Shown in pieces: positions 3,145-22,638 of a DNA stretch of 64,000 bases. The position numbers and the translations under genes are program-made. The stretch lies in assembly GCF_000027125.1 (NCBI RefSeq), contig NC_017626.1, one strand, 5' to 3'. Position 1 is the stretch's first letter; every line of letters starts with the position of its first letter. The DNA is from Escherichia coli 042. Its GTDB lineage: Bacteria; Pseudomonadota; Gammaproteobacteria; Enterobacterales; Enterobacteriaceae. The notes under the pieces were generated by a model. The model saw nothing but the letters and a program-made list of their open reading frames with translations, ran no database searches and was not told the origin of the DNA.

Positions 3145-3732
3145 TTAATCGGTGGGTAAATGCTGAGAAATAAAGTGACGGGTCAGCGAGTGTGCGAGAG
3201 GTTTATCCAGCGGTTTGCCGCTCAGTGCCGCGCGCAGCCATAATCCGTCAATCAGCGCGGCAAGTCCGTAGCCCGCTTCCTGCGCCTGTTGGCGCGGTAA
3301 CTCGCGGCGAAATTCGCTCACCAGATTCGACAATAAGCGGCGGCTGCTCACCTGCTGCAAACGGTAAAGCATCGGCTGATGCATACTGCTGGCCCAGAAC
3401 GCCAGCCAGGCTTTCATCGCAGCATTACTGACCTGAGTCTCATCGAAATTCCCGTCAACAATCGCCTGTAATCGCTGCTCTGCACTGCCCTGCGGAAGTG
3501 CATGTAATCGATTCAAAACCGCGTCACGCAGCTGAGTGGTGATATCGCGCATGGTTGCTTCCAGCAGACCATTTTTGTCCCTGAAATAGTGGCTGATGAT
3601 CCCCGTAGAAACGCCTGCACGGCGGGCGATCTGCGCGATCGTTGCATCGTGCATGCCCACTTCATTTATTGCTTCCAGCGTGGCGTCGATCAGTTGTCTG
3701 CGCCGGATCGACTGCATCCCCAATTTGGGCAT
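3145..3732 (-). CDS. betI: TetR-family repressor of the bet regulon
   Basis: ORF 3145..3750; conserved N-terminus [22 protein letters not shown] places the start at 3732; TetR-type HTH. Confidence 0.9.
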
Positions 3733-3860: not shown

Positions 3861-5894
3861 ATGACAGACCTTTCACACAGCAGGGAAAAGGACAAAATCA
3901 ATCCGGTGGTGTTTTACACTTCCGCCGGACTGATTTTGTTGTTTTCCCTGACAACGATCCTGTTTCGCGACTTCTCGGCCCTGTGGATTGGCCGCACGCT
4001 GGACTGGGTTTCTAAAACCTTCGGTTGGTACTATCTGCTGGCGGCAACGCTCTATATTGTCTTTGTGGTCTGCATCGCTTGTTCGCGTTTTGGTTCGGTG
4101 AAGCTCGGGCCTGAACAATCCAAACCGGAATTTAGCCTGCTGAGCTGGGCGGCGATGCTGTTTGCTGCCGGGATCGGTATCGACCTGATGTTCTTCTCCG
4201 TAGCCGAACCGGTAACGCAGTATATGCAGCCGCCGGAAGGCGCGGGTCAGACGATTGAGGCCGCGCGTCAGGCGATGGTCTGGACGCTGTTTCACTACGG
4301 CTTAACCGGCTGGTCGATGTATGCGCTGATGGGCATGGCGCTCGGATACTTTAGCTATCGTTATAATTTGCCGCTCACCATCCGCTCAGCGTTGTACCCG
4401 ATCTTCGGTAAACGGATTAATGGGCCGATTGGTCATTCAGTGGATATTGCAGCGGTGATCGGCACCATCTTCGGTATTGCCACTACGCTCGGTATCGGTG
4501 TGGTGCAGCTTAACTATGGCTTGAGCGTACTGTTTGATATTCCTGATTCAATGGCGGCGAAAGCGGCACTGATCGCCTTGTCGGTGATCATCGCAACGAT
4601 CTCTGTCACCTCCGGTGTCGATAAGGGCATTCGCGTGTTATCGGAACTCAACGTTGCGCTGGCGCTGGGGTTGATCCTGTTCGTGCTGTTTATGGGCGAC
4701 ACCTCGTTCCTGCTTAATGCGCTGGTGCTGAACGTTGGCGACTATGTGAATCGCTTTATGGGAATGACGCTCAACAGTTTTGCCTTCGACCGTCCGGTTG
4801 AGTGGATGAATAACTGGACGCTCTTCTTCTGGGCATGGTGGGTGGCATGGTCGCCGTTTGTCGGCCTGTTTCTGGCGCGTATCTCGCGCGGGCGCACCAT
4901 TCGCCAGTTCGTGCTGGGCACGTTGATTATTCCGTTTACCTTCACGCTGTTATGGCTCTCGGTATTCGGCAATAGCGCGCTGTATGAAATCATCCACGGC
5001 GGCGCGGCATTTGCCGAGGAAGCGATGGTCCATCCGGAGCGCGGCTTCTACAGCCTGCTGGCGCAGTATCCGGCGTTTACCTTTAGCGCCTCCGTCGCCA
5101 CCATTACTGGCCTGCTGTTTTATGTGACCTCGGCGGACTCCGGTGCGCTGGTGCTGGGGAATTTCACCTCGCAGCTTAAAGATATCAACAGCGACGCCCC
5201 CGGCTGGCTGCGCGTCTTCTGGTCGGTGGCGATTGGCCTGCTGACGCTTGGCATGCTGATGACCAACGGGATATCCGCGCTGCAAAACACCACGGTGATT
5301 ATGGGGCTGCCGTTCAGCTTTGTGATCTTCTTCGTGATGGCGGGGTTGTATAAATCTCTGAAGGTAGAAGATTACCGCCGTGAAAGTGCCAACCGCGATA
5401 CCGCACCGCGACCGCTGGGGCTTCAGGATCGCCTGAGCTGGAAAAAACGTCTCTCGCGCCTGATGAATTATCCGGGCACGCGTTACACTAAACAGATGAT
5501 GGAGACGGTCTGTTACCCGGCAATGGAAGAAGTGGCGCAGGAGCTGCGGTTGCGCGGCGCGTACGTGGAGCTAAAAAGCCTGCCGCCGGAAGAGGGACAA
5601 CAGTTGGGGCATCTGGATTTGTTGGTGCATATGGGCGAAGAGCAAAACTTTGTCTATCAGATTTGGCCGCAGCAATATTCGGTGCCGGGCTTTACCTACC
5701 GCGCACGTAGCGGTAAATCGACCTACTACCGGCTGGAAACCTTCCTGTTAGAAGGCAGCCAGGGCAACGACCTGATGGACTACAGCAAAGAGCAGGTGAT
5801 CACCGATATTCTCGACCAGTACGAGCGGCACCTTAACTTTATCCATCTCCATCGTGAAGCGCCGGGCCATAGCGTGATGTTCCCGGACGCGTGA
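3861..5894 (+). CDS. betT: choline transporter (BCCT family)
   Basis: 677-aa ORF starting MTDLSHSREKDKINPVVFYTSAGLILLF, polytopic membrane protein. Confidence 0.93.
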   Translation: MTDLSHSREKDKINPVVFYTSAGLILLFSLTTILFRDFSALWIGRTLDWVSKTFGWYYLLAATLYIVFVVCIACSRFGSVKLGPEQSKPEFSLLSWAAMLFAAGIGIDLMFFSVAEPVTQYMQPPEGAGQTIEAARQAMVWTLFHYGLTGWSMYALMGMALGYFSYRYNLPLTIRSALYPIFGKRINGPIGHSVDIAAVIGTIFGIATTLGIGVVQLNYGLSVLFDIPDSMAAKAALIALSVIIATISVTSGVDKGIRVLSELNVALALGLILFVLFMGDTSFLLNALVLNVGDYVNRFMGMTLNSFAFDRPVEWMNNWTLFFWAWWVAWSPFVGLFLARISRGRTIRQFVLGTLIIPFTFTLLWLSVFGNSALYEIIHGGAAFAEEAMVHPERGFYSLLAQYPAFTFSASVATITGLLFYVTSADSGALVLGNFTSQLKDINSDAPGWLRVFWSVAIGLLTLGMLMTNGISALQNTTVIMGLPFSFVIFFVMAGLYKSLKVEDYRRESANRDTAPRPLGLQDRLSWKKRLSRLMNYPGTRYTKQMMETVCYPAMEEVAQELRLRGAYVELKSLPPEEGQQLGHLDLLVHMGEEQNFVYQIWPQQYSVPGFTYRARSGKSTYYRLETFLLEGSQGNDLMDYSKEQVITDILDQYERHLNFIHLHREAPGHSVMFPDA

Positions 5895-17965: not shown

Positions 17966-17988
17966 CCTGCAAAGTGCGCGTTGTCTCT

Positions 17989-18161
17989 GCCGGATGCGGC
18001 GTGAACGCCTTATCCGGCCTACGAGTGGCGCGAGAATCTGTAGGCCTGATAAGCGTAGCGCATCAGGCATTTGTCACCATTGCCGGATGCGGCGTGAACG
18101 CCTTATCCGGCCTACGAATGGCACGAGAATTCTAGGCCTGATAAGCGTAGCGCATCAGGCA
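17989..18161. repeat. BIME: four alternating REP palindromes
   Basis: gccggatgcggcgtgaacgccttatccggcctacg and gtaggcctgataagcgtagcgcatcaggca units, each present twice. Confidence 0.9.
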
Positions 18162-18210: not shown

Positions 18211-19161
18211 ATGAAAGAACTTGTGGTCGTTGCCATTGGTGGCAACAGCATTATCAAAGATAACGCCAGCCAGTCGATTGAGCATCAGGCGGAGGCGGTG
18301 AAAGCCGTGGCCGATACGGTGCTGGAAATGCTGGCTTCCGATTACGACATTGTGCTGACCCACGGCAACGGGCCGCAGGTCGGGCTGGATTTACGCCGTG
18401 CGGAGATTGCCCACGAGCGTGAAGGGCTGCCCTTAATGCCGCTGGCGAACTGTGTGGCAGATACGCAAGGCGGCATTGGCTACTTGATCCAGCAGGCGCT
18501 GAACAACCGACTGGCGCGTCACAGCGAGAAAAAAGCCGTCACCGTGGTGACTCAGGTGGAAGTGGATATAAACGATCCGGGTTTTGCTCATCCCACCAAG
18601 CCCATCGGCGCATTCTTCAGTGAAAGCCAGCGTGACGAATTACAAAAGGCAAACCCTGACTGGCGTTTTGTTGAAGATGCCGGACGGGGCTATCGCCGCG
18701 TGGTCGCCTCGCCGGAACCGAAACGTATTGTCGAGGCACCTGCCATTAAGGCGCTGATCCAACAAGGCTTTGTCGTAATTGGTGCGGGCGGCGGTGGAAT
18801 TCCGGTAGTGCGTACTGACGCGGGGGATTACCAAAGCGTGGACGCGGTTATCGACAAAGATCTCTCTACCGCGCTGCTGGCCCGTGAAATTCACGCCGAC
18901 ATTCTGGTGATCACCACCGGCGTCGAAAAAGTCTGTATTCACTTTGGCAAGCCGCAGCAGCAGGCGCTGGATCGGGTGGATATTGCCACCATGACCCGCT
19001 ATATGCAGGAAGGGCATTTCCCGCCTGGCAGCATGTTGCCAAAAATCATCGCCAGCCTGGCGTTCCTGGAACAGGGCGGCAAAGAAGTGATTATCACCAC
19101 GCCGGAATGCCTGCCTGCGGCGCTGCGTGGTGAAACGGGCACCCACATTATTAAAACGTAA
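18211..19161 (+). CDS. yahI: carbamate kinase-like protein
   Basis: 316-aa ORF, amino-acid kinase fold (MKELVVVAIGGNSI...). Confidence 0.85.
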   Translation: MKELVVVAIGGNSIIKDNASQSIEHQAEAVKAVADTVLEMLASDYDIVLTHGNGPQVGLDLRRAEIAHEREGLPLMPLANCVADTQGGIGYLIQQALNNRLARHSEKKAVTVVTQVEVDINDPGFAHPTKPIGAFFSESQRDELQKANPDWRFVEDAGRGYRRVVASPEPKRIVEAPAIKALIQQGFVVIGAGGGGIPVVRTDAGDYQSVDAVIDKDLSTALLAREIHADILVITTGVEKVCIHFGKPQQQALDRVDIATMTRYMQEGHFPPGSMLPKIIASLAFLEQGGKEVIITTPECLPAALRGETGTHIIKT

Positions 19162-19170
19162 GGACGTAAG

Positions 19171-20550
19171 ATGAAAGAAAACAATAGCCGCCGTGAATTT
19201 CTGAGCCAGAGCGGTAAGATGGTCACCGCCGCCGCGCTGTTTGGTACCTCTGTGCCGCTCGCCCATGCGGCAGTCTCTGGCACAACCCACTGCGACGCGA
19301 ATAACACCATGAAAATCACTGACCCGCACTACTATCTCGACAACGTGCTGCTGGAAACCGGTTTTGACTACGAAAATGGCGTGGCGGTACAGACCCGCAT
19401 GGCGCGCCAGACCGTGGAGATTCAGGACGGTAAAATTGTTGCCCTGCGCGAGAACAAGCAGCATCCGGACGCCACGCTGCCGCACTATGACGCTGGCGGT
19501 AAGCTGATGCTGCCCACCACCCGCGACATGCATATTCATCTCGACAAAACCTTCTACGGCGGGCCGTGGCGCTCGCTCAATCGTCCGGCAGGCACCACTA
19601 TCCAGGACATGATCAAACTCGAGCAGAAAATGCTGCCGGAACTGCAACCGTACACTCAGGAACGAGCGGAAAAACTGATCGATTTATTGCAGTCGAAAGG
19701 CACCACCATTGCCCGCAGCCACTGCAATATCGAACCGGTTTCCGGCCTGAAAAATCTGCAAAATTTGCAGGCGGTGCTGGCGCGACGTCAGGCGGGCTTC
19801 GAGTGTGAAATTGTCGCCTTCCCGCAGCACGGTTTGCTGCTGTCGAAATCGGAACCCTTAATGCGCGAAGCGATGCAGGCAGGGGCGCATTACGTCGGCG
19901 GGCTGGACCCAACCAGTGTTGATGGCGCGATGGAAAAATCCCTCGACACCATGTTCCAGATTGCGCTGGACTACGACAAAGGCGTCGATATTCACCTACA
20001 CGAAACCACTCCGGCAGGCGTGGCAGCCATCAATTATATGGTTGAAACGGTAGAGAAAACGCCACAGCTGAAGGGCAAGCTGACCATCAGCCACGCCTTT
20101 GCGCTGGCAACGCTCAATGAGCAACAGGTAGATGAACTGGCGCACCGGATGGCGGCGCAGCAAATTTCTATCGCCTCGACGGTGCCGATTGGCACGTTGC
20201 ATATGCCGCTCAAACAACTGCACGACAAAGGCGTAAAAGTTATGACCGGCACCGACAGCGTTATCGACCACTGGTCGCCTTACGGCCTGGGCGACATGCT
20301 GGAAAAAGCCAATCTGTACGCGCAGCTCTATATTCGTCCTAACGAACAGAACCTCTCCCGCTCGCTGTTTTTAGCCACTGGCGATGTATTGCCGCTCAAC
20401 GAAAAAGGCGAGCGCGTGTGGCCCAAAGCGCAGGATGACGCCAGTTTTGTGCTGGTGGACGCCTCCTGTTCCGCCGAGGCGGTGGCGCGTATCTCGCCGA
20501 GAACGGCAACGTTCCATAAAGGACAACTGGTGTGGGGGAGTGTGGTGTAA
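19171..20550 (+). CDS. yahJ: Tat-exported amidohydrolase / deaminase (CodA-like metal-dependent hydrolase)
   Basis: 459-aa ORF; N-terminal SRREFLSQ twin-arginine motif followed by a hydrophobic stretch; HIHLD metal-binding motif. Confidence 0.85.
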   Translation: MKENNSRREFLSQSGKMVTAAALFGTSVPLAHAAVSGTTHCDANNTMKITDPHYYLDNVLLETGFDYENGVAVQTRMARQTVEIQDGKIVALRENKQHPDATLPHYDAGGKLMLPTTRDMHIHLDKTFYGGPWRSLNRPAGTTIQDMIKLEQKMLPELQPYTQERAEKLIDLLQSKGTTIARSHCNIEPVSGLKNLQNLQAVLARRQAGFECEIVAFPQHGLLLSKSEPLMREAMQAGAHYVGGLDPTSVDGAMEKSLDTMFQIALDYDKGVDIHLHETTPAGVAAINYMVETVEKTPQLKGKLTISHAFALATLNEQQVDELAHRMAAQQISIASTVPIGTLHMPLKQLHDKGVKVMTGTDSVIDHWSPYGLGDMLEKANLYAQLYIRPNEQNLSRSLFLATGDVLPLNEKGERVWPKAQDDASFVLVDASCSAEAVARISPRTATFHKGQLVWGSVV

Positions 20551-20669
20551 CGTTATCAGCGAGGATATCCGGGCAGGCACTATTCCGATTTTAAAACCCG
20601 ATATCCTCTGCGTTTTGCCCATGACGTACACTGCGGATTATCTTTTTTATCCAGGGATGGATAGACGCC

Positions 20670-21317
20670 GTGAAATTTCTTTGGTTATCGCTGTTGTTTC
20701 TGAGTCAGGCCGTCCTGGCAACTTGCCCTGCTGGAAATTCACAACACGAATGCGAGGCGGTGCGCATACAGCCCCTGGTCACGCCGGAGCAGAAAAAAGA
20801 TGCCTTAACGCAATTGCAAAAGTTTCAGCAAGCGCTGAGTGCAAAGAATGCCACGAAACTAAAAACCTTCTTAAAATTCCCCTACGATACCTATTTCGGC
20901 TTTCTCGCTGAGATTGAGTTGCCTGAATCTGAACCCTTCACAGAAGCACTATTTGATCGCCATTCAGAAACCATTATGCGGCGTCTGCATAATGTCACAA
21001 AATTCACGATACATCCGGGTACCCAATGGATTGATGATTATCTCAGTCATTCGCTGACGCCAGCGGAGCAAAAAAGAAAATATTATCCCCTCAATGATGG
21101 ACGTTTCTATTACGAAGAGAAAGGGGAGCGCCACTACGTCACGGGAATATGTGAACTGGCGATGTCGGGGAATATTTCTGACGATGGCATTACGCTGAAT
21201 ATTGGTTCGCAGGCTAATGAACAAATTCCACCGGCTGTTTGTGATGGCACAACTATACTGGAATTTGGCATGATTAACGGGCAGTTAAAGTTATTGCGTG
21301 TTTCTTTTGCGGGGTAA
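20670..21317 (+). CDS. hypothetical exported protein or lipoprotein, 215 aa
   Basis: GTG-initiated ORF, no upstream ATG in frame; N-terminus MKFLWLSLLFLSQAVLATC is a typical signal peptide (possible lipobox LATC); four Cys in the mature part; I do not recall an annotated K-12 gene between yahJ and yahK. Confidence 0.5.
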   Translation: MKFLWLSLLFLSQAVLATCPAGNSQHECEAVRIQPLVTPEQKKDALTQLQKFQQALSAKNATKLKTFLKFPYDTYFGFLAEIELPESEPFTEALFDRHSETIMRRLHNVTKFTIHPGTQWIDDYLSHSLTPAEQKRKYYPLNDGRFYYEEKGERHYVTGICELAMSGNISDDGITLNIGSQANEQIPPAVCDGTTILEFGMINGQLKLLRVSFAG

Positions 21318-21588
21318 ACGGCGTGTGCGTAATAATTGAATTTCACGGCAGTCTAATTCGCCAGTCACGATACCGCCCCGGTTTTAAGGCGGAAAAGGGA
21401 TATCGCTGGTGCCAGAAAGTGTGATCTGCCACGAAAAACGACACCACTATTGGTCATTAAACTCTCCGGTATCAACGTCTCAGAGCCCATCACGGGCAAC
21501 CATTCATTGGCTATATTGAATGAGCGAGTTTTGCTGCAAAGACGTTCCTCACATCATCCAGATACCTCTTCGAACAGGAGTGAATGCA

Positions 21589-22638
21589 ATGAATATCAAG
21601 GCTATTGGTGCTTATTCCGCGACGCAACCGCTGGAACCGATGGATATTACCAGGCGTGAACCGGGACCGCATGATGTCAAAATTGAAATCGCTTACTGTG
21701 GCGTCTGCCATTCCGATATCCACCAGGTCCGTTCCGAGTGGGCGGGGACGGTTTACCCCTGCGTGCCGGGTCATGAAATTGTGGGGCGTGTGGTAGCCGT
21801 TGGTGATCAGGTAGAAAAACATGCGACGGGCGATCTGGTCGGTGTCGGCTGTATTGTCGACAGTTGTAAACATTGCGAAGAGTGTGAAGACGGGCTGGAA
21901 AACTACTGTGATCACATGACCGGCACCTATAACTCGCCGACGCCGGACGAACCGGGCCATACGCTGGGCGGCTACTCACAACAGATCGTCGTTCATGAGC
22001 GATATGTTCTGCGTATTCGTCACCCGCAAGAGCAGCTGGCGGCGGTGGCTCCTTTATTGTGTGCAGGGATCACCACATACTCGCCGCTACGTCACTGGCA
22101 GGCCGGGCCGGGTAAAAAAGTGGGCGTGGTTGGCATCGGCGGTCTGGGACATATGGGGATTAAGCTGGCCCACGCGATGGGGGCACATGTGGTGGCATTT
22201 ACCACTTCTGAGGCAAAACGCGAAGCGGCAAAAGCCCTGGGGGCCGATGAAGTTGTTAACTCACGCAATGCCGATGAGATGGCGGCTCATCTGAAGAGTT
22301 TCGATTTCATTTTGAATACAGTAGCTGCGCCACATAATCTCGACGATTTTACCACCTTGCTGAAGCGCGATGGCACCATGACGCTGGTTGGTACGCCTGC
22401 GACACCGCATAAATCGCCGGAAGTTTTCAACCTGATCATGAAACGCCGCGCGATAGCCGGCTCTATGATTGGCGGCATTCCAGAAACACAGGAGATGCTC
22501 GATTTTTGCGCCGAACATGGCATCGTGGCTGATATAGAGATGATTCGGGCCGATCAAATTAATGAAGCCTATGAGCGAATGCTGCGAGGAGATGTGAAAT
22601 ATCGTTTTGTTATCGATAATCGCACACTAACAGACTGA
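21589..22638 (+). CDS. yahK: zinc-dependent NADPH aldehyde reductase
   Basis: ORF 21520..22638; start set at ATG 21589 (MNIKAIGAYSA); GHEIVGRV and GxGxxG motifs of the MDR/ADH family. Confidence 0.9.
   Translation: MNIKAIGAYSATQPLEPMDITRREPGPHDVKIEIAYCGVCHSDIHQVRSEWAGTVYPCVPGHEIVGRVVAVGDQVEKHATGDLVGVGCIVDSCKHCEECEDGLENYCDHMTGTYNSPTPDEPGHTLGGYSQQIVVHERYVLRIRHPQEQLAAVAPLLCAGITTYSPLRHWQAGPGKKVGVVGIGGLGHMGIKLAHAMGAHVVAFTTSEAKREAAKALGADEVVNSRNADEMAAHLKSFDFILNTVAAPHNLDDFTTLLKRDGTMTLVGTPATPHKSPEVFNLIMKRRAIAGSMIGGIPETQEMLDFCAEHGIVADIEMIRADQINEAYERMLRGDVKYRFVIDNRTLTD

Follow-up and report, generated by a model that had tools for sequence, protein, structure and literature searches.

The 215-aa ORF between yahJ and yahK of Escherichia coli 042 is a genuine accessory gene: already annotated, uncharacterized, and in this sense ordinary. 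We consider it probable, taking the account as a whole, that this gene encodes an exported NTF2-like binding module which has lost a DUF4431 domain, reached E. coli on a recombinant segment, and is retained in its short form by selection. The existence of the gene, the selection acting on it, its distribution, fold class, domain loss, and recombinant origin are established by the analysis, and the route of export, the disulfide, and the binding role are inferred from it. This provides an orphan E. coli accessory gene with a fold, a family, and an origin. The weight for general biology is small—the gene is already in the databases, and its fold class is common. All positions refer to the window, that is, the entire stretch of 64,000 nucleotides that was analyzed.

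20670–21317, + strand: CDS of the 215-aa exported protein, GTG start and TAA stop, from the ORF list and the sequence; an identical PGAP CDS exists (WP_000670937.1).

The 648-bp ORF begins with GTG and encodes a product whose N terminus reads MKFLWLSLLFLSQAVLATC. It is found exactly as the initial annotation had described it, on the same strand as yahJ and yahK, and the predicted succession of an N-terminal signal peptide and a hydrophilic, cysteine-containing domain holds for what is a real gene. Its neighbors, all on the same strand, are yahI (18211–19161) and yahJ (19171–20550) upstream, the latter separated from the ORF by 119 bp, and yahK downstream, whose annotated start is at 21589 of the window versus 21520 in the mechanical ORF list. 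YahJ itself begins with MKENNSRREFLSQ—a twin-arginine motif (SRREFL), which agrees with the Tat export that had been ascribed to it.

The gene had been suspected to be overlooked, which it is not. PGAP calls the same CDS, as a "hypothetical protein" (WP_000670937.1), in Ecol_316 and 58 other carriers, and UniProt holds D3GTB5 ("Exported protein", E. coli O44:H18 strain 042), which a Foldseek search against AFDB50 returns at 100% identity over 215 aa. Both deposited entries are the same gene as the window ORF with no sequence difference, and both come without family, fold, or function. Database entries of 132 and 185 aa have the identical sequence, shortened by a start called further downstream. 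No mention of this gene turned up in the literature on DUF4431, D3GTB5, WP_000670937, and yahI/J/K that was searched. By our own estimate from length alone, ~0.2 ORFs of such length are expected per 64-kb window; we take the gene as real because of its homology, its dN/dS of 0.13–0.20, and its confident fold, rather than because of ORF length. An artefact of another reading frame was rejected, as the overlapping ORFs on the opposite strand have only 70–86 aa and are unsupported.

Of 5426 complete E. coli genomes, 59 (~1%; megablast of the yahJ–yahK interval) have the gene intact, each time as a single chromosomal copy; a tblastn search of plasmids with the 215-aa protein gave no match. Identity to the window is at least 99% in 58 carrier genomes and 99.0% in strain GF4-3. 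The conjecture that the ORF is strain specific is thus borne out, K-12 being without it, and no gene is annotated at this site in K-12, in agreement with the initial annotation. The question whether the K-12 copy is intact or degraded has to be answered with neither. Window positions 20546–21505 (960 bp) replace 300 bp of K-12, and tblastn of the 215-aa protein against the K-12 locus gives a single match of 34 aa at E = 0.1. A degraded K-12 copy was rejected on the grounds of this sole match and of the unrelated spacer, which is explained by an ABC-permease remnant. In K-12 and CFT073, the yahJ–yahK spacer holds a 75-bp pseudogene, LALWGTLLLCFIQARGMLGLDRVV* (L003 4724–4798 and L004 1869–1943, respectively), corresponding to the C terminus of a sugar ABC-transporter permease that is intact in strain 2015C-4944 (L005 1542–2498), 87 bp upstream of yahK. 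Because the intact permease lies directly upstream of yahK in this strain, the yahF–J cluster and the ABC transporter are alternative occupants of the site. A further difference concerns the yahG–yahI region, where K-12 has several copies (L003 1757–2116) of a ~80–175-bp stretch that is present only once in the window (17988–18161); K-12 has "yahH" annotated there, and no yahH occurs in the window or in other strains carrying the ORF.

Two regions of the protein need to be distinguished when it is compared with its relatives:

20721–20777, + strand: short linker TCPAGNSQHECEAVRIQPL, aa 18–36, with Cys19 and Cys28; relatives have a DUF4431 domain of ~100 aa there.
20778–21314, + strand: conserved domain of ~180 aa belonging to no curated family, predicted to be an NTF2/SnoaL-like alpha+beta cone.

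The 215-aa protein has no Pfam match even at E ≤ 10, only one NCBIfam match, to the lipoprotein family TIGR04454, which at 14.5 bits stays below the cutoff of 35, no match in PHROGs and PADLOC searches, and nothing below E = 0.28 in a PDB sequence-profile search. A word-indexed search of 5.8 billion proteins with the single sequence returns only an E. coli cluster of 79 members, all hypothetical; with a profile as query, mainly Fusobacteria-type singletons are found. Exhaustive HMMER searching of 1.84 billion representatives yields 19 proteins at E ≤ 0.001, with P0016 being a fragment of the 215-aa protein. The matches span aa ~36–215 and are either the C-terminal domain of secreted proteins of 307–659 aa or standalone secreted proteins of ~200–227 aa. 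In other Enterobacterales, the domain forms the C-terminal module of longer proteins, and Fusobacteriota and Bacteroidota have it by itself. Relatives with a name belong to Citrobacter, Affinibrenneria, Hafnia, Siccibacter, Salmonella Albany, Serratia, Sebaldella, and Cloacibacterium. At their N terminus, the longer homologues contain DUF4431 (four proteins), YARHG (one), or DUF4459 (one). We flag a small domain family of Enterobacterales, Fusobacteriota, and Bacteroidota that neither Pfam nor NCBIfam covers.

Among species-representative genomes, homologues with 36–42% identity are found in Lelliottia, five Citrobacter species, Phytobacter, and Kosakonia. In all of these genera except Lelliottia, the homologue sits before the convergent actP–yjcH–acs cluster, most such loci having lysR and cidA/lrgB-like genes on the opposite side, and yah genes are never adjacent. 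The neighborhoods of the homologues are otherwise uninformative, being short contigs or a singleton between unrelated operons. In Kosakonia sp. S29, the copy (L017 5559–6144) is apparently disrupted: tblastn recovers pieces for aa 2–148 and 153–200, and the C-terminal domain is mostly gone.

The relation to these longer proteins is most apparent at the N terminus. The closest comparison is Citrobacter gillenii A0ABD6M691 (P0017; 317 aa, DUF4431 type), which shares a near-identical signal peptide, the GTG start, and the Shine-Dalgarno region with the window gene. The first 21 residues are identical to those of P0017 (MKYLWLSALLFSHAVLAWCPA...) at 15 of 21 positions, versus ~40% over the remaining protein. 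The C-terminal ~180 aa of the DUF4431-type proteins are 39–43% identical to the window protein, with the same conserved cysteine pair and the common motifs QFQQFQQAL, RKYY, YYY, GxCD, and NGKLKL. What differs is the ~100-aa DUF4431 domain, which the window protein does not have, and the genomic site—between yahJ and yahK for the window gene, between lrgB-like genes and actP for the DUF4431-type genes. Global alignments to P0017 and to the homologue of locus L011 open a gap of ~100 residues exactly at their DUF4431. DUF4431 (PF14485) matches four homologues (best E-value 7.8e-11) and gives no match in the window protein; Cys19 and Cys28, which bracket the start of DUF4431 in the relatives, are retained in it. 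Apart from the Escherichia-type alleles, every enterobacterial relative has the N-terminal domain. Deletion of the DUF4431 domain is the most parsimonious origin of the short form, which is a domain-loss derivative: it has kept the signal peptide and start region of the DUF4431-type relatives and is short of ~100 residues of DUF4431. The window protein also deviates from the family consensus at conserved positions, with QF replaced by QL, CD by CE, and the loop PGLSE by P-PAV.

The gene lies on a segment that differs from its surroundings in composition and in similarity to K-12:

20546–21631, no strand assigned: lower-GC segment replacing the 300-bp yahJ–yahK spacer of K-12, delimited by the break points versus K-12 and entering yahK by ~15 codons.

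Its GC content is 44–49% versus 54–60% in yahI, yahJ, and yahK. Homology to K-12 restarts at 21506, yet at only ~73% up to ~21631, covering the first ~15 codons of yahK. A metagenome-derived contig (L018) has the order yahI–yahJ–ORF–yahK with an ORF allele that is 93% identical to that of the window and a 475-bp insert (3253–3727) between ORF and yahK relative to the window. Within 21533–21631, the window is 94–100% identical to L018 and 52–78% to K-12; from ~21632 on, it is 92–100% K-12-like and 86–88% L018-like. This switch of similarity at ~21632 is a recombination crossover inside yahK. The L018-type allele is absent from the complete E. coli genomes, the best match being 90%, and the donor was, therefore, a divergent Escherichia-like lineage. 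By these comparisons, the ~1.1-kb segment is one that entered E. coli by recombination from such a lineage. It has moved between E. coli lineages as well, since segment identity between the window lineage and GF4-3 (99.0–99.6%) exceeds that of the flanks (~95–98%, with yahJ at only ~95%). L018 is also without yahL, its yahN-like LysE/RhtB exporter directly following yahK (5017–5384).

A third allele comes from two independent samples (L021 99–1353 and L022 1–1031) and combines the 3' end of yahJ, the ORF at ~93% nucleotide identity, and a convergent actP sharing only 84% identity with its E. coli counterpart. The yahJ–ORF junction is, hence, kept in all three alleles, with a downstream neighbor that is either yahK (window, L018) or actP (L021, L022). 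The yahJ–yahK junction is thereby documented as a hot spot of recombination, at which no fewer than three structural alleles occur. The short 215-aa form thus also occurs in a non-E. coli enterobacterium, at a place where Citrobacter has the long DUF4431 form.

Domain loss and horizontal acquisition raise the question whether the gene still does anything. It could be a relic in decay, whose reading frame is still open although the horizontally acquired, domain-deleted fragment has ceased to function, and the loss of DUF4431, the rarity of the gene in E. coli, the deviations at some consensus positions, and the failure to predict a promoter would all fit such a relic. Within E. coli, moreover, only three nonsynonymous versus two synonymous differences are counted, which are too few to judge. 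The wider comparison speaks against decay. For the window, L018-type, and L021-type alleles, the Nei–Gojobori method gives a dS of 0.17–0.26 and a dN/dS of 0.13–0.20; all three are 648 bp long, start with GTG, and are free of indels. In addition, the gene is intact in all 59 carrier genomes, and its domain models at high confidence. We therefore regard a relic as improbable: judged by these substitution rates, the short form is maintained by purifying selection. It reached a minority of E. coli lineages on the recombinant segment and has been kept by selection.

The predicted structure of the conserved domain (pLDDT 95) conforms to the NTF2-like cone, in which some three helices lead into a strongly curved antiparallel sheet with five or six strands. 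It can be compared with the NTF2-like/SnoaL-like superfamily as represented by PDB entries 3h3h, 2rcd, and 3f7s and by the C-terminal domains of Pgp2 (6xj7) and Csd6 (4xzz). The window-protein domain is ~50 residues larger than a typical NTF2 domain, and its predicted disulfide and Tyr-rich motifs are specific to its family within the superfamily. The likeness is one of fold: sequence families of the NTF2 clan (SnoaL, DUF4440, and others) give no significant curated-profile match, and Foldseek against the PDB gives none at E ≤ 0.001. By this model, residues 37–215 fold into a divergent NTF2/SnoaL-like alpha+beta cone that is probably pinned by a disulfide between two cysteines:

21150–21152, + strand: family-conserved Cys161.
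21240–21242, + strand: family-conserved Cys191.

Among 16 family members, 14 retain Cys161 and 13 retain Cys191, which suggests a Cys161–Cys191 disulfide; such a bond would fit a periplasmic location. Besides C161 and C191, the conserved polar positions are K42, Q48, Q53, Y138, Y147, Y148, N183, and D/E162.

An alternative is an enzymatic reading, in which the protein would act as an isomerase, dehydratase, hydrolase, or iota-carbonic-anhydrase type enzyme on a periplasmic small molecule. The acidic D/E162 beside Cys161 is conserved, which leaves catalysis conceivable. It is, however, the only conserved acidic position, no histidine is conserved, sequence identity to any such enzyme is 5–15%, the best matches are to designed binders and to proteins whose function is unknown, and no Pfam enzyme family matches. 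An enzyme is, hence, unlikely. Because only one acidic position and no histidine are conserved, we favor a binder, and our working hypothesis is that the protein may bind a small ligand or an envelope component as a module without catalytic activity, being neither an enzyme nor a lipoprotein.

How the protein leaves the cytoplasm was assessed by inspection of its N terminus:

20670–20720, + strand: signal peptide MKFLWLSLLFLSQAVLA, aa 1–17, with a probable signal peptidase I cleavage site after V-L-A.

The signal peptide consists of MK followed by FLWLSLLFLSQAVLA; ahead of T18, position −3 is V and position −1 is A. The hydropathy maximum, and with it the strongest hydrophobic stretch, is at aa 3–17, a core of 15 residues; the basic n-region, an h-region within 10–15 residues, and small residues at −3 and −1 are, by inspection, all those of a Sec/signal peptidase I substrate. 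A possible lipobox had been proposed for the same region. In this case, Cys19 would be lipid-modified after signal peptidase II cleavage and would anchor the protein to the membrane, for which one can point to the cysteine directly following the hydrophobic core (L-A-T-C), to the faint sub-threshold match to TIGR04454, and to remote structural relatives from Bacteroidota that are labelled lipoproteins. A canonical lipobox needs G, A, or S at −1 (PROSITE PS51257). The sequence L-A-T-C has T at this position and, thus, does not conform to the pattern [LVI][ASTVI][GAS]-C; this site is W or F in the closest homologues sharing the signal peptide (AVLA|WC in P0017), and in the relatives, this cysteine is the first conserved one of the DUF4431 domain rather than a lipidation site. 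A lipoprotein is accordingly quite improbable in our view. Owing to the Thr at −1 and the W or F of the homologues, signal peptidase I cleavage after Ala17 (VLA|T) is more likely, and the lipobox proposal is not supported. The product would be made with a Sec-type signal peptide, probably be cut by signal peptidase I after Ala17, and be released as a soluble periplasmic protein of ~22 kDa. Taken together with the K-12 comparison, this removes a false lead—toward a missed K-12 gene and toward a lipoprotein.

Signals for expression are sparse around the gene:

20653–20662, + strand: weak Shine-Dalgarno-like AGGGATGGAT, 8–14 nt before the GTG, read from the sequence.
20561–20608, + strand: imperfect 12-bp hairpin just after the yahJ stop (inverted repeat I5), not a convincing terminator.

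Citrobacter-type homologues conserve the GTG start and have AAGGA at the homologous Shine-Dalgarno position, where the window has the weaker ATGGA. Scanning of 20300–21800 detected neither a sigma-70-like promoter on the + strand upstream of the ORF nor a terminator separating it from yahJ, and an Rfam search of the same interval gave nothing credible. The hairpin after yahJ has a fold z-score of −1.75 and its stem is not maintained in allele L022; both the hairpin and the region after the ORF fold no better than shuffled sequence. Transcriptional read-through from yahJ into the ORF is, on these scans, plausible. The ORF is also flanked by a perfect 11-nt inverted repeat, GCCGTGAAATT at 20667–20677 and AATTTCACGGC at 21339–21349, reaching from the start codon to 22 nt past the stop. 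Chance would give ~0.3 pairs of this kind per 1.5 kb, and L021 does not share the stretch holding the downstream arm; the repeat is, hence, probably fortuitous.

Read-through leads to the possibility that the protein is a periplasmic partner of YahJ, encoded by the co-transcribed last gene of the fdrA/yahF–yahG–yahI–yahJ cluster and binding or converting the substrate or product of YahJ. The ORF follows yahJ on the same strand at 119 bp, no convincing terminator intervenes, a periplasmic location is predicted for both products, and the junction persists in all three alleles despite two different downstream neighbors. However, ~99% of yahJ-bearing E. coli genomes are without the ORF, the DUF4431-type relatives of Citrobacter, Phytobacter, and Kosakonia adjoin actP and lrgB-like genes with no yah gene nearby, and the linkage could reflect one ancestral junction spread by recombination with yahJ as homology arm. 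Such a partnership is, thus, not to be expected, at a likelihood similar to that of an enzyme. The more general claim of a functional link to the Tat-exported amidohydrolase YahJ we rate low as well, slightly below that, given that the ORF is missing from nearly all yahJ-bearing E. coli and that the longer relatives occupy other sites. One might go further and picture an undescribed secreted NTF2-like domain family whose short form has been fixed downstream of YahJ, as its partner, in Escherichia-like lineages, acting in the periplasm. If this were true, the protein would act on the substrate or product of the uncharacterized yahF–J nitrogen-compound pathway or on YahJ itself; we give this picture little credence. 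The genes neighboring the ORF in the window offer no functional clue, and a soluble periplasmic binding module remains the favored description.

NTF2-like immunity proteins exist, and we considered whether the protein could neutralize a cell-wall-targeting toxin as an immunity or inhibitor protein of the periplasm. The starting point is a Citrobacter homologue (L011) that adjoins a 133-aa amidase-like gene and a gene for a 187-aa signal-peptide protein. This pair is specific to L011, where it is an insertion flanked by a duplicated lrgB 3' end, and it is missing from the other six syntenic loci; an immunity role deduced from these neighbors was rejected for this reason. In the window, no toxin gene adjoins the ORF, its neighbors being yahJ and yahK, and PADLOC and PHROGs had returned nothing. 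An immunity function is, hence, highly improbable. The insertion itself, found in Citrobacter sp. Awk 4 (L011 4097–5516), is flanked by repeated lrgB aa 164–229 and resembles a small toxin/immunity-type cassette.
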